The notes: generated by a model not told the origin, from the letters alone. 64,000 nucleotides of DNA from an uncultured Kofleriaceae bacterium (GCA_964446175.1 CAYUNM010000034.1:15115-79114); one strand, 5' to 3'; shown: positions 28,720 to 42,635, counted from the stretch's first letter. Translations and numbers: made by a program.

Positions 28720-29748
28720 TCAGAGGTACCTCGCCAGGCCGCGCGCCGAGAGCGCGTCGATGACCTTGCGGACGTCCTGGGCCTGGTCCTTCTTGATCAC
28801 GAGGATCGCGTCGCCGCTCTTCACGACGACGATGTCGCTGAGGCCGACGACCGCGATGATGCCGTCGTCACCGACGACCACGTTGTCCTTGCCTTCGATC
28901 ACGATCGCGTTGCCGACGATCGTGTTGCGCGCCGCATCCGTGCCGCGCACGGCGGGAAGCGCGGCCCACGAGCCGACGTCATCCCAGCCGACCGCCGCCG
29001 GCACCGTCACGATGCCGCTCGCCTTCTCCATCACCGCGTGATCGATCGAGATCGAAGGCAGCGTCGGGTAGAGCGTCTTCGCGAGCTCGGGGTTCGCCGC
29101 GATCTCGCGGACCGCGCGGCCGGTGCCCGGCAGGTGCTGGTCGAGCTCGGCGAGCAGGCGATCCGCGCGCGCGCAGAAGATGCCCGCGTTCCACAGGTAG
29201 CGCGTGCTCGCGACGTACTGCGCGGCGGTCGCCGCGTCGGGCTTCTCGACGAACTGCAGCACCGGCGTGACCGTGCCCGGCGTGGTCGCCTCGACCTCGA
29301 GGTAGCCAAAGCCCGTCTCGACGCGCGTCGGCGTGATGCCGACGGTGGCGATCGGTCCCTGCTCCGCCGCGTCCATCGCGATGCCGAGGATCTTCGCGAG
29401 ACCGGCGCGATCGGTGACGTGCTGGTCGGCGGGCAGGATCGCGAGCACGGCGTCGGGGTCGCGCGCGAGCAGGATCGCGGCCGCGAGGCCGATCGCGGCC
29501 GCGGTGTTGCGGCCGACCGGCTCCGCGATCACCTCGGAGCCCGGCAGCAGCGCGCGCGTCGCCTCCGCCTGCGACTCGGCGGTGACGAGCACGACGTGCT
29601 GCGCGACCTGCGCGCCGAGCTGCGCGGCCGCCGCGACCATCGGGACGCCGTCGGCAGCGAGCGCGAGCAGCTGCTTGGGACGCGCGCGGCGGCTCGCCGG
29701 CCAGAGGCGGGTGCCGCTGCCACCCGCGAGGATCACCGCATGTCTCAC
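28720..29748 (-). CDS. manC: Mannose-1-phosphate guanylyltransferase (short form)
   Basis: N-terminal AVILAGGSGTRLWPASR and an overall nucleotidyltransferase pattern. 342 aa without the C-terminal isomerase/cupin part. Confidence 0.85.
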   Translation of the reverse strand: MRHAVILAGGSGTRLWPASRRARPKQLLALAADGVPMVAAAAQLGAQVAQHVVLVTAESQAEATRALLPGSEVIAEPVGRNTAAAIGLAAAILLARDPDAVLAILPADQHVTDRAGLAKILGIAMDAAEQGPIATVGITPTRVETGFGYLEVEATTPGTVTPVLQFVEKPDAATAAQYVASTRYLWNAGIFCARADRLLAELDQHLPGTGRAVREIAANPELAKTLYPTLPSISIDHAVMEKASGIVTVPAAVGWDDVGSWAALPAVRGTDAARNTIVGNAIVIEGKDNVVVGDDGIIAVVGLSDIVVVKSGDAILVIKKDQAQDVRKVIDALSARGLARYL

Positions 29749-31535: not shown

Positions 31536-31940
31536 TTACGGTTCCGCGAGCAGCTGGCGGGCGAGCTCGGGGGCGCGCAGACAATCGCCCCCGACGAGCT
31601 CGTAGCGGAGCCGCTTCTTGCGATCGTAGATCTTGAAGTGCGGCAGGGCGCTGATGTCGTAGGCCTTCGCCACCGGTGTGAACCCATCGCCGACATCGAC
31701 CTTGCGTACGACCACGTACGGTTCGTTCGCGGTCTGCACGGCCAGCACGCCCGCGGCCGTCGTGCACGCGCCGCACGACTCGCTCCAGAAGTCGATCACG
31801 GTCACGCTGCCCGGCACGAGCGCGGCCGCGATGTCGACCATCGCGCCGGCGTGGTTGATCTCGAGCGACTTCGGCGCCACGGGAGGCGGAGGCGCAGCGG
31901 TCGCACCGCACGCCGCGAGCACGAGAACGAGCGCTTTCAC
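31536..31940 (-). CDS. Thioredoxin-fold lipoprotein (CxxC = CGAC)
   Basis: Lipobox VLVLAAC, then IDFWSESCGACTT and a thioredoxin-like continuation. GTG start overlaps the Hsp70 stop. Confidence 0.75.
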   Translation of the reverse strand: MKALVLVLAACGATAAPPPPVAPKSLEINHAGAMVDIAAALVPGSVTVIDFWSESCGACTTAAGVLAVQTANEPYVVVRKVDVGDGFTPVAKAYDISALPHFKIYDRKKRLRYELVGGDCLRAPELARQLLAEP

Positions 31941-33499
31941 GAGGCCTCGAGCTGCTTCGCGAGGCGCGTGACCTCACCGCGCGCGAGGCCGGCGTGGAAC
32001 ACCTGCTCGAGCGTCAGCCGCTCGCCGGAGACCATCTCGGTCGCGCCGAGGCGAACGACCCCATCCGTATCGATCGTCACCTCGACGAGGCACAGCACGT
32101 CGCCCGCCGGCGCGGGCGGCAGGTCGACGACCGCGTAGCGCCCGAGGTGCCGGTTCTGCGACGGATCCTGCGACTCGCCTTCCCACACGTCGAACTCGAG
32201 GCGCGCCTGCTCGTCGGTGCGCGTCGCGAGCAGGCGGTGCTCGCGCGTCGGCACGACCGCGCTCTGCGCGATCACCATCTCGCACTCGCCCTGCTGCACG
32301 CTCATCGAGAGGCCGCGCGCCGTGACGTCGATCAGCAGCACGCCCTCGATCGTGCCGTCGAGCCGCGCGACCTCGAGCGCCGCGCCGACCGCGACGACCT
32401 CCTCGGGGTTCGCGATCACGCTCGGCTCGCGGCCCGTGATCCGCGCCAGCTCCTTCTTCACGGCCGGCATGCGCGTGCTGCCGCCGACGAGCAGCACCTC
32501 CTCGATCTCCTCGCGCTTGCGGCCGCACCGGCGCAGCGCCTCCTTCACGGGCGGCTCGAGGCGCTTGACGAGCGGCGACGCCCACAGCTCGAGCTCGTCG
32601 CGCCGCACCGGGCGGGCGTAGTCGACGAGCTTGCCGCTCGGCAGCTCCGCGAGGCCTGCCACCGTGACCGTCGCGCTGCCGTGATCCGACAGCTCGTGCT
32701 TCGCGCGCTGCGCGGCGAGCCGCAGCTTCTCGATCGCGAACGCATCGGTCGAGACGTCGATGCCGCGCGTCTGCCGCACGTCGCGCACGAGGTGCTCGAC
32801 GATCGCGCGATCGACGTCGTCGCCGCCGAGGAACGGATCGCCGGTCGTCGCGAGCACCTCGAAGACGCCGGCCTCGACGTCGACGGCCGCGACGTCGAAC
32901 GTGCCGCCGCCGAGATCGCACACGAGGTAGCGACGATCCGCGCCGCGATGCGCGCCGTGGCCGAGCGCGGCCGCCGTCGGCTCGCTGATGAGCCGGATCA
33001 CCTGCAGCCCCGCGATCGCGGCCGCGTCTTTCGTCGCCTGGCGCTGCGCGGCGTCGTACCACGCGGGGATCGTGATCACCGCGCTCGTCACGGGAGCCTT
33101 GTAGAACCGCTCCGCCGTGCGCTTGAGCTCGCGGAGGATCAGCGCCGAGACCTCCTCGGGCGAGACGGCGCGGCCGTGCGCGAGCTGGATCCACGTGTCG
33201 CCGTTCGGCGCCTCGGTGATCTCGTACGGCAGGATGCGCGCGAGCTTCTTGATCTCGGGATGATCGAAGCGACGGCCGAGCAAACGCTTCGCGCCGAAGA
33301 TCGTCAGGTCCGGCGAGTGATCGAGCCCCTCGCGCGCCGCCTCGCCGACGACCGGCCCGTGTGGCGAGAACCACACGAGCGACGGCAGCGTCGTCGAGCC
33401 TTCCGCGGTCGTCAGGATGCGCGGCACGCCGTCGCGATCGATGACCGCGACGACCGAGTTCGTCGTGCCGAGATCGATGCCGACCGCGCGCGCGCTCAT
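31937..33499 (-). CDS. Hsp70 family ATPase, short form lacking the C-terminal lid (520 aa)
   Basis: VGIDLGTTNSVVAV, DLGGGTFDV, LVGGSTRMPAVK. Substrate-binding beta domain is present, the helical lid is absent. ATG at 33499. Confidence 0.88.
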   Translation of the reverse strand: MSARAVGIDLGTTNSVVAVIDRDGVPRILTTAEGSTTLPSLVWFSPHGPVVGEAAREGLDHSPDLTIFGAKRLLGRRFDHPEIKKLARILPYEITEAPNGDTWIQLAHGRAVSPEEVSALILRELKRTAERFYKAPVTSAVITIPAWYDAAQRQATKDAAAIAGLQVIRLISEPTAAALGHGAHRGADRRYLVCDLGGGTFDVAAVDVEAGVFEVLATTGDPFLGGDDVDRAIVEHLVRDVRQTRGIDVSTDAFAIEKLRLAAQRAKHELSDHGSATVTVAGLAELPSGKLVDYARPVRRDELELWASPLVKRLEPPVKEALRRCGRKREEIEEVLLVGGSTRMPAVKKELARITGREPSVIANPEEVVAVGAALEVARLDGTIEGVLLIDVTARGLSMSVQQGECEMVIAQSAVVPTREHRLLATRTDEQARLEFDVWEGESQDPSQNRHLGRYAVVDLPPAPAGDVLCLVEVTIDTDGVVRLGATEMVSGERLTLEQVFHAGLARGEVTRLAKQLEAS

Positions 33500-33575
33500 C
33501 GCGGGTCCTCGCTCCGCTCGGCCCGCGACGCAAGCCCACCCATCCCCAACACCCCGCAAGCTTCGCTTGCTCTCC
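33500..33575 (-). promoter_or_regulatory. 76-nt structured intercistronic element, copy A (between the J-domain gene stop and the Hsp70 start)
   Basis: Sense strand reads GGAGAGCAAGCGAAGCTTGCGGGGTGTTGGGGATGGGTGGGCTTGCGTCGCGGGCCGAGCGGAGCGAGGACCCGCG, flanked by TGA and ATG. About 88% identical to the copies at 39637 and 42560. Confidence 0.8.
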
Positions 33576-34694
33576 TCATTCGAACACCCGCTTCAGCCGC
33601 TCCGGGCTGCCCGCACCATGGCGGCGCACGTGCTCGAGCAGCCGCGACGCCTCGATGCAGTGCTCGTGGTGCGCGAGCGCGGTCTCGAGCTGCGTCGTCG
33701 CGAGCACGAGCTCGCCTTCCTGCAGCGCGGCGAGCGCCGTCGCGACGTAGTACAGCGAGCGCAGCGGCTTGCTGCGCGGATAGATCACGAGCGCGGCCGC
33801 GAGCACCTCGCGCGCCGCATTCGCGTCGCCCGTCCTGAGCTGCGCGCGCGCACGATGCTCGAAGGCCTCCGCACCCTGCGGCGGCGCGGCCGGCGGCGGC
33901 TGCGGCGCGACCGGCTGCGGCGTGGGCGGACGCTCGAAGCGGCGCGGCGCGGTCTTCGGCACCGGCGTCGCATCGCCGCTCTGGATGTCCTCGAAGCCGA
34001 CGAGCCAGCCCGGCGGCGTCGCGATCAGCGAGCCCGCCTTGATGCCCTCGCCCTTCGCCATCAGCGCGATGCGCAGCCGGTCGTACGCGCGGTTGCCGAG
34101 GATCGTCAGCTCCTCCGCGAGGTGCGTGATCGCGGGCGCACCCCGCCGCGCGACGAGATCCGGATGATGCCGCCGGATGTGCGCCTTCCAGCCGTCGCGC
34201 AGCTGCTCGGGCGTCGGATCGCGCGGCACGCCGAGCACCTCGTGCACGGCCGCGGTGCGCATGCGGCGCAGCTCGCTCGACAGCTGCTGGAACAGCGCGC
34301 GCTCGTCGGCCGGCAGCTCGTCGCCGCCCATCGCGCTCGACTTGCGCGTCGGCGCGGCGGGCACGGGAATCTGCGGATCCGTCTCGACGTCGTCGTTGCC
34401 GCGCGCGGCGAGGTTCTTGATCCGCGCCAGCGTCTCCTCGGTGAGCCCGGTGAGATCGACCTCGATCCACATGCGCTGCGCGTCGCCCTCGACCGGCGAG
34501 GCCCGCTGGATGACGCCGTCGATCGCGATCACCATCTCGTTCGGCAGCTCGAGCCCGAGCGTCACCGGCGAGCCGAGCTTGGCCTGGAACGGCACCTTCA
34601 TCGACAGCAGGCGTCCCTTGCGCAGCTTGCGCTTCGTGAACGTCTCGACCTGCTCCCAGGTCGCGCATCGCACGTGCAGCGTGCGTGCGGCCAC
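33576..34694 (-). CDS. PilZ-like beta-barrel / J-domain (HPD) / TPR-like co-chaperone
   Basis: The N-terminal about 95 aa resemble the myxobacterial PilZ-type domain (canonical RxxxR and DxSxxG motifs not evident). J domain VHEVLGVPRDPTPEQLRDGWKAHIRRHHPD. Helical-repeat C-terminus. GTG start abuts the upstream stop (TAGGTG). Confidence 0.7.
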   Translation of the reverse strand: MAARTLHVRCATWEQVETFTKRKLRKGRLLSMKVPFQAKLGSPVTLGLELPNEMVIAIDGVIQRASPVEGDAQRMWIEVDLTGLTEETLARIKNLAARGNDDVETDPQIPVPAAPTRKSSAMGGDELPADERALFQQLSSELRRMRTAAVHEVLGVPRDPTPEQLRDGWKAHIRRHHPDLVARRGAPAITHLAEELTILGNRAYDRLRIALMAKGEGIKAGSLIATPPGWLVGFEDIQSGDATPVPKTAPRRFERPPTPQPVAPQPPPAAPPQGAEAFEHRARAQLRTGDANAAREVLAAALVIYPRSKPLRSLYYVATALAALQEGELVLATTQLETALAHHEHCIEASRLLEHVRRHGAGSPERLKRVFE

Positions 34695-36947
34695 CTACTT
34701 CCCCTTCTTCGCGTTCGGGTCGGGCTGCAGCTCGACCTTCTTCTCGAGGACGGCCTTCTTCTTCGCGGAGTCGATCGGCGTCGACGGATCGTTGTCGCGC
34801 CAGTCATTCTCCTTGAACTCGACGATCTCGGTCTTGAAGCCGGGCTTCACGACGGCGGCCGTGTAGTCGCGGCCCGCCCACAGGTTCTCGAAGTGCGCGT
34901 GGTTCGCGCCGATGAACAGCCACACGTCGGCATCGGCCGGCGACGAGTCGATGTGGACCTTGCCCGAGCCGACGATGCCCGTCGTGCCGAGCACGGCGCT
35001 CGTCGGCTGCAGCGGCAGCTCCGCCGGCTTGCCGGCCTTGCCGGGCTTGAGCGTGACGCTGAGCTTCGCGGCGAGCGACTTGCCGCTGCCGGTCCAGGTC
35101 GTGCCGTTGATCTGCGCCTCGGTCGGCTCGAAGCCGTCCTTGAGCAGCACGAGGTCGTGCTGCTGCGTCGCGGGCAGCGCGATCGGCACGTCGACGGGCG
35201 TCTTGCCGAGCTTGAGCCAGATGCCGGCCGCATCGGCGGTGATGTCGATCGCGCCCGGATCGGGCAGCGCTTCCTGCGCGGCCTTCGTCTTGTTCGCGGC
35301 CTCCTGCTCGGCACGCTCCTTCGCTTCCTTCGCGGCCTGCGCCTGCGCGTCGTCGGCGTGCAAGCGGTAGTAGATGCCGTAGCCGGCAGCGCCGAGGACG
35401 CCGAGGATCAGGATCGTGCCGATCACGCCGCGCAGCGGGCTCTTCAGCTTCGGCGCCGCGAGGTCCGTCATCTCGGGCATGTCGACGATCGGCGCCGCGC
35501 GCGGTGGAGTGCGCTTCGCGGGATTGCCGGTCTCGGCGCGCACGGCGGCGCGTTCGGCGCGCGCGGCGGCCTCCTCGAGCTTCGCGGCAGCCGCAGCCGC
35601 CTGCTCCGCGGCCGTCGAGACGCGCTTCGCGCCCTCGTCGAGCGAATCGATCGCGGCGAGTGCGGCCGCCTCATCGGTCGTGCCGCCGCGCATGCCGTTC
35701 GGGCTCGAGATGCGGCTCGGCGCGCGCAGCGGGAGCTCGCTCGACGACTCGCGGTGCGGCGACGGCGGCGGCAGCGGCGTCATGTCGTCGTCGGGATCGT
35801 CGAGCGACGGCACGCGTGCGCGCGACACGATCGCCTCGCGCTCGCGCGGGTCGTGCCGGATCAGCTCGCTGACCGGATCGCGCCGGAACGCCGACGGCGG
35901 CTCGGGATCGATGTGCGTCATCCCGGTGTCGTCGAGATCGTTGAGCAGCGAGCCGAGCCGGTCCGAGCCCGGGCGCGCCTTCTGGATCTTCTGCGCCTCG
36001 GCGCGCAGATCGAGGCTCGGCCGCGTGACCTGGATCGGACCGCCGCCGCCGAGCGACGCGAGCAGATCTTCGGTCGCGTCGTCGATGTTCGTGTCGCTGT
36101 GCGACAACCCCGCCTCGCGGATGAGCTCGCCACGATCCGCGAGCTCCCAGCGATCGTCCTCCATCGCCTCGAGCAGGTTCTCGAGCAGATCGCTGGCCGA
36201 CTTGTAGCGGCGCGACGTGTCGGTATCGAGCGCGCGCTGGACGAGCCGCTCGACGGCAGGCGTGACGCGCAGCGAGCCGGGCGGCACCTCGCCCGAGAGC
36301 ATCGTGAACAGCATCGCGCCGACGGCGAACACGTCGACGGCGGGCGTCGGATCCTCGCCGACGACGAGCTCGGGCGCGATGTAGCCGGTCAGCCCGCGCC
36401 ACAAGGACGAGTCCGCGCCCTGCGCGACCGCCTTCGTCAGCGCGTGGCCGACGATGAAGTCGGTCAGCCGCACGCCGCCGTCTTCGTCGATCAGCACGCT
36501 GCGCGGGTGCACGGCGCCGTGGATCACGCCCGCCTCGTGCGCGGCGGCGAGCGCCTCGATCACGCTGCGGCCGATCAGGCCCGCGATCGGCGTCGACAGC
36601 TTGCCGCCCTGCTTCGACTTCGCCTTGGCGGCCGTGATCAGGTCCTGCACGGTGACGTACCGCCCGACGCCGCGCGTGACGACGACGACATCGGGCCCGC
36701 CCGACTCGACGCCGACCGTCGGCACGATGTTCGGGTGCTCGAGCTTGGTCACCGTCGTGATCGTCTTCGCGTCGGTCAACGCGATGCGAAACGTGTCGTC
36801 TTCGAGGATCTTTGGATCGACGATCAGACCACGCAGGTTGCGCTGCCCCATGAACTGCGCGCGGTGAATCGCGCCATACATGGTGACGGCCAACCGCTCG
36901 CTGAGGACAACGCCGGCGATGATCTGCTCGGCCGCTTGGCCACCCAC
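34695..36947 (-). CDS. Membrane-spanning Ser/Thr pseudokinase with extracytoplasmic PEGA domains (start at GTG 36947 or ATG 36881)
   Basis: Kinase fold retained (LEHPNIV, YIAPE, RY.SA.DLL) but the Gly loop is absent, HRDLKPxN is replaced by HGAVHPRSV, and DFG by TDF. Then a TM helix (VIGTILILGVLGAAGYGIYY) and two PEGA-like modules. Confidence 0.75.
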   Translation of the reverse strand: MGGQAAEQIIAGVVLSERLAVTMYGAIHRAQFMGQRNLRGLIVDPKILEDDTFRIALTDAKTITTVTKLEHPNIVPTVGVESGGPDVVVVTRGVGRYVTVQDLITAAKAKSKQGGKLSTPIAGLIGRSVIEALAAAHEAGVIHGAVHPRSVLIDEDGGVRLTDFIVGHALTKAVAQGADSSLWRGLTGYIAPELVVGEDPTPAVDVFAVGAMLFTMLSGEVPPGSLRVTPAVERLVQRALDTDTSRRYKSASDLLENLLEAMEDDRWELADRGELIREAGLSHSDTNIDDATEDLLASLGGGGPIQVTRPSLDLRAEAQKIQKARPGSDRLGSLLNDLDDTGMTHIDPEPPSAFRRDPVSELIRHDPREREAIVSRARVPSLDDPDDDMTPLPPPSPHRESSSELPLRAPSRISSPNGMRGGTTDEAAALAAIDSLDEGAKRVSTAAEQAAAAAAKLEEAAARAERAAVRAETGNPAKRTPPRAAPIVDMPEMTDLAAPKLKSPLRGVIGTILILGVLGAAGYGIYYRLHADDAQAQAAKEAKERAEQEAANKTKAAQEALPDPGAIDITADAAGIWLKLGKTPVDVPIALPATQQHDLVLLKDGFEPTEAQINGTTWTGSGKSLAAKLSVTLKPGKAGKPAELPLQPTSAVLGTTGIVGSGKVHIDSSPADADVWLFIGANHAHFENLWAGRDYTAAVVKPGFKTEIVEFKENDWRDNDPSTPIDSAKKKAVLEKKVELQPDPNAKKGK

Positions 36948-36967: not shown

Positions 36968-37819
36968 TCAGTAAGCAGTTAGCCGCATGTGGACCTCGAT
37001 CCACGGCTCGGCGAACAGGTAAAAGACCGCCGCCGCCGCGAGGTACGGCCCGAACGCGAGCTCGCTCGTCATCGAGCCCTCGCCCCGGCGCAAAAGCCGC
37101 ATGGTCTCGATGACGGTCCCGAGCATCGAGCCGCCGAACAGGGTCGCGAGCACGCCCTTCCACCCGAGCAGCGCGCCGACGAGCGCGAGCAGCTTCGCGT
37201 CGCCGAGCCCGAGGCCCTCGCGCTTGCGGATGCGGAAGTAGAGCTCGCCGATCAGCCACGGCAGCCCGTAGCCGATCGCGATCCCGACGAGGCCGTCGTA
37301 CCAGCGCCGCTCCGGCAGCAGGAACGTTGCCGCGTAGAAGATCGCGACCGATGGATACGTGACCTTGTCGAGGATGTACTTCGTGTCGAGGTCGATGAAC
37401 GTGATCACGATCATCACGAACACGAACGCCGCCATGATCACGAACCGGATCACGCGCAGCTGCATCGGCTCGAGCATCCCGGCCGGCCCGATGGTGAACC
37501 ACCACGCCACGCCGAACAGCGCGCCCGTGATCGCCTCGACGAGCAGGTAGCGCGCGGAGAACGGCGCCTTGCAGTTGCGGCACTTCCCGCGCAGCCACAG
37601 CCACGAGATCAGCGGGACGTTGTCGTACCACTTGATCGGCGCCTTGCAGGCGAAGCAGTGCGAGCCCGGCGCGACGACGGAGCGGCCCTTGGGAAACTCG
37701 TCGCTCGGCGCCCAGCGATAGATGCAGACGTTCGCGAAGCTGCCCCAGAGCAGGCCGAGGACGACGGCAAATGCATAGGCACCGGGCGTATCGGCCAGCG
37801 GCTCGAGCTCGGTGAGCAC
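36968..37819 (-). CDS. pilD: Prepilin peptidase (A24 family, PilD/GspO-type)
   Basis: Zn-finger-like CFACKAPIKWYDNVPLISWLWLRGKCRNCK, catalytic Asp contexts FIDLDTKY and GLGDAKLLA. Start inferred at GTG 37819. Confidence 0.85.
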   Translation of the reverse strand: MLTELEPLADTPGAYAFAVVLGLLWGSFANVCIYRWAPSDEFPKGRSVVAPGSHCFACKAPIKWYDNVPLISWLWLRGKCRNCKAPFSARYLLVEAITGALFGVAWWFTIGPAGMLEPMQLRVIRFVIMAAFVFVMIVITFIDLDTKYILDKVTYPSVAIFYAATFLLPERRWYDGLVGIAIGYGLPWLIGELYFRIRKREGLGLGDAKLLALVGALLGWKGVLATLFGGSMLGTVIETMRLLRRGEGSMTSELAFGPYLAAAAVFYLFAEPWIEVHMRLTAY

Positions 37820-39636: not shown

Positions 39637-39712
39637 GGAGAGCAAACGAAGTTTGCGGGGTGTCGGGGCTGGGTGGGCTTGCATCACGGGCCGAGCGAAG
39701 CGAGGACCCGGG
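39637..39712 (+). promoter_or_regulatory. 76-nt structured intercistronic element, copy B (immediately upstream of proB)
   Basis: GGAGAGCAAACGAAGTTTGCGGGGTGTCGGGGCTGGGTGGGCTTGCATCACGGGCCGAGCGAAGCGAGGACCCGGG between TGA (39634-39636) and ATG (39713). Confidence 0.8.
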
Positions 39713-42559: not shown

Positions 42560-42635
42560 GGAGAGCAACCGAAGGTTGCGGGGTGTTGGGGTTGGGTGGG
42601 CTTGCACAACGGGCCGAGCGAAGCGAGGACCCGGA
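42560..42635 (+). promoter_or_regulatory. 76-nt structured intercistronic element, copy C (between rsfS and rlmH)
   Basis: GGAGAGCAACCGAAGGTTGCGGGGTGTTGGGGTTGGGTGGGCTTGCACAACGGGCCGAGCGAAGCGAGGACCCGGA between TGA (42557-42559) and GTG (42636). Confidence 0.8.

Follow-up and report, generated by a model that had tools for sequence, protein, structure and literature searches.

Introduction

Myxobacterial genomes encode a dozen or more paralogues of Hsp70 and J proteins, whose jobs are mostly obscure. Here we describe a J protein of 372 residues and the lidless Hsp70 of 520 residues encoded next to it in the genome of an uncultured soil bacterium of the family Kofleriaceae, order Haliangiales, in the Myxococcota. 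The stretch of DNA that was analysed, called the window below, is 64,000 nt long; all positions are counted in it, and every gene discussed lies on its minus strand. The two proteins are likely to form a dedicated J-protein/Hsp70 pair, in which a PilZ-fold domain and a tetratricopeptide repeat (TPR) domain of the J protein serve as adaptors to a specific client. The locus makes a clean and strongly conserved study case, with identifiable targeting modules, an unambiguous partner Hsp70 and a candidate membrane scaffold adjoining.

That PilZ domains can be joined to the Hsp70 machinery is known from Myxococcus xanthus, which has 15 Hsp70 proteins and 16 J proteins (PMC10313047). Its PilZ-DnaK chaperones CsdK1 (MXAN_3778) and CsdK2 (MXAN_6605) stabilise the PilZ client CdbS, and the interaction is independent of cyclic di-GMP (c-di-GMP) (Seidel et al. 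2023, PMC10313047). A DnaK or DnaJ domain is present on four of the 24 PilZ proteins of M. xanthus (Kuzmich et al. 2021). All 24 PilZ-protein genes have been deleted, and motility or developmental phenotypes were seen only for plpA, pixA, pixB and pkn1 (PMC8316039). One of the PilZ proteins without binding motifs is MXAN_7024, whose deletion left motility, exopolysaccharide and development unaffected, and the motif-less PilZ proteins of M. xanthus are predicted not to bind c-di-GMP (PMC8844925). MXAN_7025 is a non-canonical Hsp70 that lacks the C-terminal tail, and its deletion leads to mild defects in sporulation and in the response to oxidative stress (PMC8265645). StkA, a 540-residue Hsp70 homologue of M. 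xanthus, is a negative regulator of exopolysaccharide downstream of pili (PMC4319316).

PilZ domains can also work as protein adaptors. The binding partners of the 'xPilZ' adaptors are PilB and FimX, and not c-di-GMP (10.1101/814665, 10.1101/2020.02.11.943704, PMC8389850). Dedicated J/Hsp70 pairs and PilZ-chaperone combinations are already known in myxobacteria, the latter as the PilZ-DnaJ and PilZ-DnaK proteins of M. xanthus. We found no description in the literature of the combination that is encoded here, in which a PilZ-fold/J/TPR protein goes together with a PEGA pseudokinase and a lidless Hsp70.

Results

A predicted PilZ fold without c-di-GMP motifs in the J protein

A preliminary description of the window had placed two open reading frames of 372 and 520 codons on either side of a 76-nt element, and all three were confirmed at those positions, on the minus strand (Table 1). 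We take both reading frames to be real genes because of their G+C content at third codon positions (0.94 in the J gene and 0.95 in the Hsp70 gene), the number of homologues of the J protein and the conservation of the gene order across about 70 genomes. The J gene has a GTG start directly after the TAG stop of the upstream pseudokinase gene, and its orthologues share this start position. At least 675 homologues of the J protein were found in a large protein collection, in which those that have a name are entered as 'J domain-containing protein [Kofleriaceae bacterium]'. The same description had seen in the J protein a PilZ-like segment in which neither c-di-GMP motif was found and whose binding of nucleotides is doubtful, then a bona fide J domain with its HPD motif, and helical repeats at the C-terminus. 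This architecture stands: profile and structure searches with residues 1-100 returned PilZ-fold homology, the start position and the alignment of the motif columns support the absence of both motifs, the J domain is recovered by the profile of its family, and the repeats are of the TPR type.

The homology to PilZ proteins was seen through relatives, profile-profile comparison and structure, because direct scans with hidden Markov models were blank: for the J protein of the window, neither Pfam nor NCBIfam yields a match to PilZ or to the myxobacterial PilZ-type domain TIGR02266 with an E-value of 0.1 or less. The protein is also missing from the 24 TIGR02266 matches of a scan of the whole genome. 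Four of these 24 TIGR02266-like PilZ domains score above the curated cut-off of 68.7 bits, and the best of them keep clear RRxxxR and D/NxSxxG motifs. Among 35 diverse relatives from the J family, 20 match TIGR02266, with a best E-value of 4.1e-11. A paralogue on contig C14 of the same genome matches it at E 4.5e-9 (36-38 bits, under the cut-off) and is colinear with the J protein of the window, with 28% identity over 207 residues (E 7e-15). When the alignment of the N-terminal domain was compared by hhalign with an alignment of 12 genuine TIGR02266 domains from this genome, the two matched over 93 columns with a probability of 95% (E 3.7e-8). These comparisons indicate that the N-terminal domain is derived from the myxobacterial TIGR02266 branch.

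The structural comparison agrees. With the full-length model, TPR proteins dominate the Foldseek matches and a PilZ protein appears only at rank 39, so a model of the domain alone was used. This AlphaFold2 model has a predicted local distance difference test score (pLDDT) of 88.3 and a predicted template modelling score of 0.73. It consists of strands at residues 4-9, 29-34, 43-49, 55-68 and 71-80 and a helix at residues 86-99, that is, a PilZ-type beta-barrel with a C-terminal helix. Its best matches in the PDB are 4fou_D, 3cnr, 7lkm and 3dsg, which are the Xanthomonas PilZ proteins XAC1133/XC1028, with E-values of 1.4e-4 to 4e-3, template modelling scores of 0.55-0.63, 96-100 aligned columns and 18-20% identity. 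The c-di-GMP-binding PilZ proteins MotI, MrkH and PP4397 match the model more weakly (E 0.07-0.22).

Both motifs for c-di-GMP are absent from the domain. There is no room for RxxxR because the J protein begins three residues before strand 1, which starts at residue 4; the hhalign alignment likewise opens past the RRxxxR columns, and all J orthologues begin three to four residues ahead of this strand. In place of D/NxSxxG, the hhalign alignment maps the D, the S and the last G to K23, R25 and R28 of the segment K23-L-R25-K-G27-R28, and the sequence at this position is kept as RKLR[KR]G across the J orthologues. A distant group of paralogues retains D-L-S-R-G at the second motif. As predicted from alignment and modelling, the N-terminal domain is therefore a PilZ fold devoid of both c-di-GMP motifs. 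Separately, C10 and W13 of the domain (window positions 34656-34667) are invariant even in family members that are only 22-25% identical, and C346 of the TPR domain is invariant within the close J family. A redox role is a guess.

J domain, linker motif and TPR domain

The full-length J protein was modelled by AlphaFold2 from an alignment of 31 sequences. Residues 1-100 have a pLDDT of about 90 and are followed by a disordered linker; the J region (residues 129-213) is helical with a pLDDT of about 60; a proline-rich disordered segment comes next, and residues 275-371 form helical repeats with a pLDDT of 70-86.

In 31 close homologues the HPD motif (H177-P178-D179) does not vary, and over 35 diverse family members its conservation is at least 90%. 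Pfam DnaJ (PF00226) gives the window protein alone 15.9 bits (E 0.014), with a gathering score of 27.8, and matches 31 of the 35 diverse members at E ≤ 0.01. The profile of the J family matches the solved J domains of DNAJC3 (7.8e-18), Sec63 (2.6e-10) and E. coli DnaJ (2.8e-8).

In the C-terminal domain, helices are modelled at residues 275-287, 291-304, 309-325, 329-342 and 347-359. The match of the window protein alone to TPR_14 is weak and below the cut-off; TPR families match 23 of the 35 members, and Foldseek pairs the domain with consensus TPR proteins at a probability of 1.00. Between the J and TPR domains, the linker carries the motif PPGWLVGFEDIQS, in which G229, W230, L231, V232, F234, D236 and S239 are invariant among 31 homologues and which has an acidic C-terminal flank. 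Orthologues of the pilD cluster (P0126-P0196) share the motif, and the distant paralogue group lacks it.

A lidless Hsp70 with intact catalytic residues

The start codon taken for the Hsp70 is the ATG at 33499 (MSARAVGIDLGTTNS...), level with residue 3 of E. coli DnaK in the alignment; from there the protein runs for 520 residues to position 31937. It matches PF00012 with an E-value of 5.7e-145 over profile positions 1-515 of 599. Its alignment to DnaK extends from residue 3 to residue 521, where helix A ends and where the protein itself ends, so that helices B-E and the C-terminal tail are missing. The lid is missing in the whole family, because so few residues follow the end of the alignment in 65 complete orthologues (median 4, maximum 48). 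In DnaK numbering, D8, K70, R71, P143, R151, R167, E171, D194, G196-198, T199, D201, D393 and D481 are invariant in 66 Hsp70 sequences. The interdomain linker is V/I-L-L-I-D in the family and VLLIDVT (residues 387-393) in the window protein. In the substrate arch, M404 of DnaK is replaced by Q, G or A, and A429 by R or K in 63 of the 66 orthologues. From these residues, the Hsp70 is predicted to be catalytically competent, with its domain-coupling residues intact and without a lid.

This agrees with the preliminary description, which had proposed an Hsp70 with an intact ATPase and beta-sandwich domain and no helical lid. It had also likened the protein to HscC-type Hsp70s, and here only a functional analogy survives. 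The window protein is 39% identical to E. coli DnaK (374 bits), 37% to HscA and 31% to HscC (199 bits). In a maximum-likelihood tree it forms a clade, with a support of 98/100, with the lidless paralogues on contigs C14 and C11, and this clade stands apart from E. coli DnaK, two canonical paralogues, HscA and HscC.

Assignment to a described subfamily was rejected in each case that was considered. HscC has the low identity just given and branches far away. For HscA, the score is 416 bits against a curated cut-off of 709, the orthologue in this genome is another gene, on contig C53, and there are no isc genes nearby. A canonical DnaK is rejected by the missing lid, the separate branch and the scores with the DnaK equivalogs NF001413/TIGR02350, which fall below their cut-offs (472 bits against 648, and 456 against 823). 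A PilZ-DnaK fusion of the CsdK type is rejected too, since the Hsp70 starts directly with the ATPase domain and the PilZ fold is on the J protein.

A conserved gene unit and its duplication

The order pilD, kinase-like/PEGA gene, J gene and Hsp70 gene is found at 71 genome loci, all from metagenome-assembled genomes of Kofleriaceae/Haliangiales, and on metagenome contigs. Wherever the contig extends that far, the pseudokinase gene is found upstream of the J gene, and the same is true of pilD. A thioredoxin gene follows the Hsp70 gene in most loci with a long enough contig, and genes for ManC and phosphomannomutase often come after the unit, the position of manC varying among relatives. In a profile search of 200 genomes of the phylum, full-length matches to the J family occur only in the genus, family and order of the window's own genome.

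The neighbouring genes have features of their own. In the catalytic loop of the pseudokinase, HGAVHPRS takes the place of HRDxKxxN in 60 of 63 orthologues; the DFG motif has become DF[IV], with APE kept. A transmembrane helix and a PEGA-like ectodomain are also present in the protein, and its gene likely starts with a GTG at 36947. The CGAC (CxxC) site of the thioredoxin is conserved in orthologues, and the gene overlaps the stop of the Hsp70 gene by 4 nt. The gene of an exported redox lipoprotein appears translationally coupled to that of a cytoplasmic chaperone. A promoter scan found no minus-strand terminator-like sites and no sigma-70-type promoters within the J, Hsp70 and thioredoxin genes. 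For co-transcription of these three genes there is weak evidence from the sequence.

Table 1. Features of the locus, with positions in the window.
Feature	Position	Strand	Evidence
Prepilin peptidase PilD (peptidase A24), first in the conserved co-directional unit	36968..37810, start provisional	-	60-90% identity to same-position genes of relatives, which match Pfam A24_N_bact + Peptidase_A24
Membrane-spanning pseudokinase with PEGA-like ectodomain	34695..36947	-	Pkinase E 3e-19 (profile positions 49-253 only), weak PEGA match
J-domain co-chaperone, 372 aa: PilZ fold, disordered linker, J domain, Pro-rich linker, TPR domain	33576..34694	-	Homologues, AlphaFold2, profiles
J protein residues 1-100, divergent PilZ-fold domain	34395..34694	-	hhalign, AlphaFold2 domain model, Foldseek
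J protein residues 148-213, J domain; HPD 177-179 = 34158-34166	34056..34253	-	Invariant HPD, family profile
J protein residues 227-239, conserved motif PPGWLVGFEDIQS in predicted disordered linker	33978..34016	-	Invariant residues, pLDDT <50
J protein residues 272-372, about three TPR repeats + capping helix	33579..33881	-	Weak TPR_14, TPR matches of relatives, Foldseek
76-nt dispersed repeat between J and Hsp70 genes	33500..33575	.	BLAST against the genome
Lidless Hsp70, 520 aa: nucleotide-binding domain, linker, beta-sandwich, lid helix A only	31937..33499	-	PF00012, DnaK alignment
Thioredoxin-fold lipoprotein, 134 aa, lipobox LAAC, active site CGAC	31536..31940	-	Thioredoxin Pfam E 6.2e-8
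ManC-like mannose-1-phosphate guanylyltransferase gene	28720..29748	-	Homology to L001/L002 genes matching NTP_transferase + ManC_GMP_beta-helix

Two more pairs of a J-TPR protein and a lidless Hsp70 are encoded in the same genome, at C14:117466-120557 (minus strand) and C11:80666-83346 (minus strand), making three in total. The J protein of the C14 pair has a PilZ-like domain that retains D-L-S-R-G; that of the C11 pair has no PilZ-like domain and has HPA for HPD. The three pairs, together with the clade formed by their Hsp70s in the tree, indicate that the J/Hsp70 module was duplicated as a whole. Next to a J-family member of 24% identity, the Hsp70 gene starts 3 nt downstream. A distant unit on a metagenome contig (JGI 3300056388), with a 35%-identical J member (P0157), has two chaperone pairs in tandem, in the order pilD, kinase/PEGA gene, Hsp70 (523 aa), small DnaJ (170 aa), PilZ-like J protein (508 aa), Hsp70 (523 aa) and a gene of 165 aa.

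The junction between the J and Hsp70 genes

In most relatives the J and Hsp70 genes overlap or abut. BLAST identifies the window's 76-nt spacer as a dispersed repeat that was inserted at this junction: it has about 30 matches of at least 39 nt over the contigs of the genome, six of which are near full length (74-76 nt, 89-100% identity), and two further copies lie in the window at about 39637-39710 and 42560-42633. Its 3' end carries the Shine-Dalgarno sequence AGGA, 6 nt ahead of the Hsp70 ATG. We do not read the spacer as a structured regulator, because its predicted RNA fold is no better than that of shuffled sequence (z -1.39).

Other relatives also have insertions here. The junction at L001:9122-9420 holds four tandem copies of a 54-nt unit (translated APASPAEAINRPGATVSR), and in other relatives, represented by L008, L052 and L024, there are gaps of 75, 90 and 272 nt. 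The junction seems, from these sequences, to be a hot spot for insertions.

Discussion

We have described a J protein with a predicted PilZ fold and a TPR domain, and a lidless Hsp70 encoded beside it. As stated at the outset, we consider it likely that the two form a dedicated pair with adaptors for a specific client. The precedent of CsdK1 and CsdK2, the conserved gene order, the joint duplication of the module and the fact that distant members of the J family are also followed by an Hsp70 gene all support this reading. We suggest that the J domain would stimulate the ATPase of the neighbouring Hsp70 and of no other. As adaptors, the PilZ fold and the TPR domain would bind proteins and not sense nucleotides, in the way that Xanthomonas PilZ works with PilB and FimX, and would recruit the Hsp70 to a single client or a single site. 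Lacking a lid, the Hsp70 may bind and release faster, or it may take folded surfaces. The likeliest site of action would be the cytoplasmic face of the inner membrane, where the neighbouring pseudokinase could serve as scaffold or client.

Several points weigh against this picture. Stimulation of the Hsp70 by the J protein is a prediction from sequence and gene order, the specific client is a presumed one, and the putative link to the pseudokinase comes from gene order only. The match to PilZ structures is moderate (E 1.4e-4, root-mean-square deviation 3.9 Å) and comes from a predicted model; the J-domain and TPR scores of the window protein are under the Pfam cut-offs, and its J region is modelled with a pLDDT of only about 60. 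Binding of c-di-GMP by the N-terminal domain is doubtful, and non-canonical binding of a nucleotide is conceivable. Moreover, the PilZ-DnaJ deletions of M. xanthus have no motility, exopolysaccharide or developmental phenotype (PMC8316039), so the module may be redundant or conditional.

A different function for the PilZ-like domain, and a different role for the pair, have also to be weighed. A co-chaperone that is switched by c-di-GMP, or by another nucleotide, through a non-canonical site in its PilZ-like domain would be in keeping with the origin of the domain in the TIGR02266/PilZ family, with the D-L-S-R-G that distant paralogues keep, and with CsdK2 of M. xanthus, a chaperone whose motif is intact. 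We regard such a switch as highly improbable: no orthologue has space for RxxxR, the second motif has K and R in place of its D and S, the nearest structures are PilZ proteins of trivial c-di-GMP binding (10.1101/814665), and the prediction for motif-less M. xanthus PilZ proteins is that they do not bind (PMC8844925). It is also conceivable that the PilZ fold docks on PilB and that the pair tunes pilus assembly or exopolysaccharide, like the M. xanthus Hsp70 homologues StkA or SglK; the preliminary description had pointed to these two and to a possible role in exopolysaccharide and social motility. The top fold matches are indeed PilZ proteins of PilB-PilZ-FimX complexes (PMC8389850), the unit begins with pilD and is often followed by genes for ManC and phosphomannomutase, and StkA represses exopolysaccharide downstream of pili (PMC4319316). 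However, the identity to Xanthomonas PilZ is just 18-20%, the unit has no other pil gene, pilD also serves type II secretion, and the position of manC varies. Since, in addition, stkA has different neighbours and the PilZ-DnaJ deletions mentioned above are normal for motility and exopolysaccharide, we think a regulator of pili or exopolysaccharide quite unlikely.

The numbers of chaperones could be taken to mean that the pair is a redundant, general-purpose duplicate, which adds folding capacity in stress or development and has no dedicated client. The genome encodes about nine paralogues of Hsp70 and numerous J proteins, and the mutants of non-canonical Hsp70s in M. xanthus share mild defects in sporulation and under oxidative stress (PMC8265645). 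Yet about 70 genomes strictly conserve both the order of the genes and the adaptor domains, the arch residues are altered and the lid is lost in every orthologue, and the score lies under the DnaK equivalog cut-off. Because these features argue for specialisation of the Hsp70 and its J protein, a general-purpose duplicate appears very unlikely to us.

The dedicated adaptor pair, which we prefer, could be extended to a chaperone-based device for transmembrane signalling or assembly. In such a scheme, the PEGA pseudokinase would sense something in the envelope, where the lipoprotein thioredoxin acts, and recruit the J protein through its dead kinase domain, and the J protein would then set the lidless Hsp70 to work on a client close to the membrane. 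As a corollary, the PPGWLVGFEDIQS motif could be a built-in pseudo-substrate for the Hsp70 cleft, in which A429 has become Arg or Lys. We hold this scheme to be unlikely as it stands. If the link to the pseudokinase is true, the locus would provide a new coupling of an envelope sensor to a cytoplasmic output, and under the signalling scheme a Hanks-type receptor would have an Hsp70 cycle as its output in place of phosphotransfer. If the link is false, the locus encodes one more specialised chaperone pair.

Whatever becomes of that link, the locus illustrates the joint duplication of whole J/Hsp70 modules. A PilZ domain of the TIGR02266 branch has probably been turned from a second-messenger receptor into a protein adaptor, in parallel to the PilZ proteins of Xanthomonas and Pseudomonas. 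The results are also of use for annotation, as the N-terminal domain has so far been unannotated and the protein is named merely 'J domain-containing protein'.

The systems to which the locus can be compared share different parts of it. A specialised Hsp70 gene beside a dedicated J protein with a targeting module is also seen in E. coli, for HscC with DjlB/DjlC and for HscA with HscB. However, HscC (556 aa) and HscA (616 aa) reach further past helix A than the lidless Hsp70 does, the subfamilies differ, and DjlB/DjlC have neither PilZ nor TPR domains. DNAJC3/P58IPK resembles the J protein in combining TPRs with a J domain and is its best match among solved J domains (7.8e-18). In DNAJC3/P58IPK, however, the order is reversed, with the TPRs before the J domain; it is a eukaryotic protein of the endoplasmic reticulum with nine TPRs and no PilZ domain, and the likeness is one of architectural convergence and not of orthology. 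The stkA gene differs in its surroundings, its neighbours being the genes for the SCP2-like StkB and for StkC instead of a pilD-pseudokinase-J-Hsp70 unit.

With the Xanthomonas PilZ proteins (XAC1133/XC1028) and PA2960, the PilZ of P. aeruginosa, the N-terminal domain shares the loss of the RxxxR loop, and these proteins are blind to c-di-GMP. The xPilZ proteins stand alone, whereas the PilZ fold described here is fused to a J domain, comes from the TIGR02266 branch and has the low identity to Xanthomonas PilZ given above. Within the myxobacteria, MXAN_7024 and MXAN_7025 of M. xanthus are putative counterparts, whose consecutive locus tags and descriptions suggest the same pairing of a motif-less PilZ protein with a tail-less Hsp70. 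CsdK1 and CsdK2 are, like the pair described here, myxobacterial, non-housekeeping and built by joining a PilZ domain to the Hsp70 system, and the PilZ domain of CsdK1 is without half of the c-di-GMP motif that is intact in CsdK2. Unlike in CsdK1 and CsdK2, where the PilZ domain is at the N-terminus of the Hsp70 itself, in the Kofleriaceae locus the PilZ fold is carried by a TPR-bearing J protein, the Hsp70 is a separate and lidless protein, and the genetic context is a different one.

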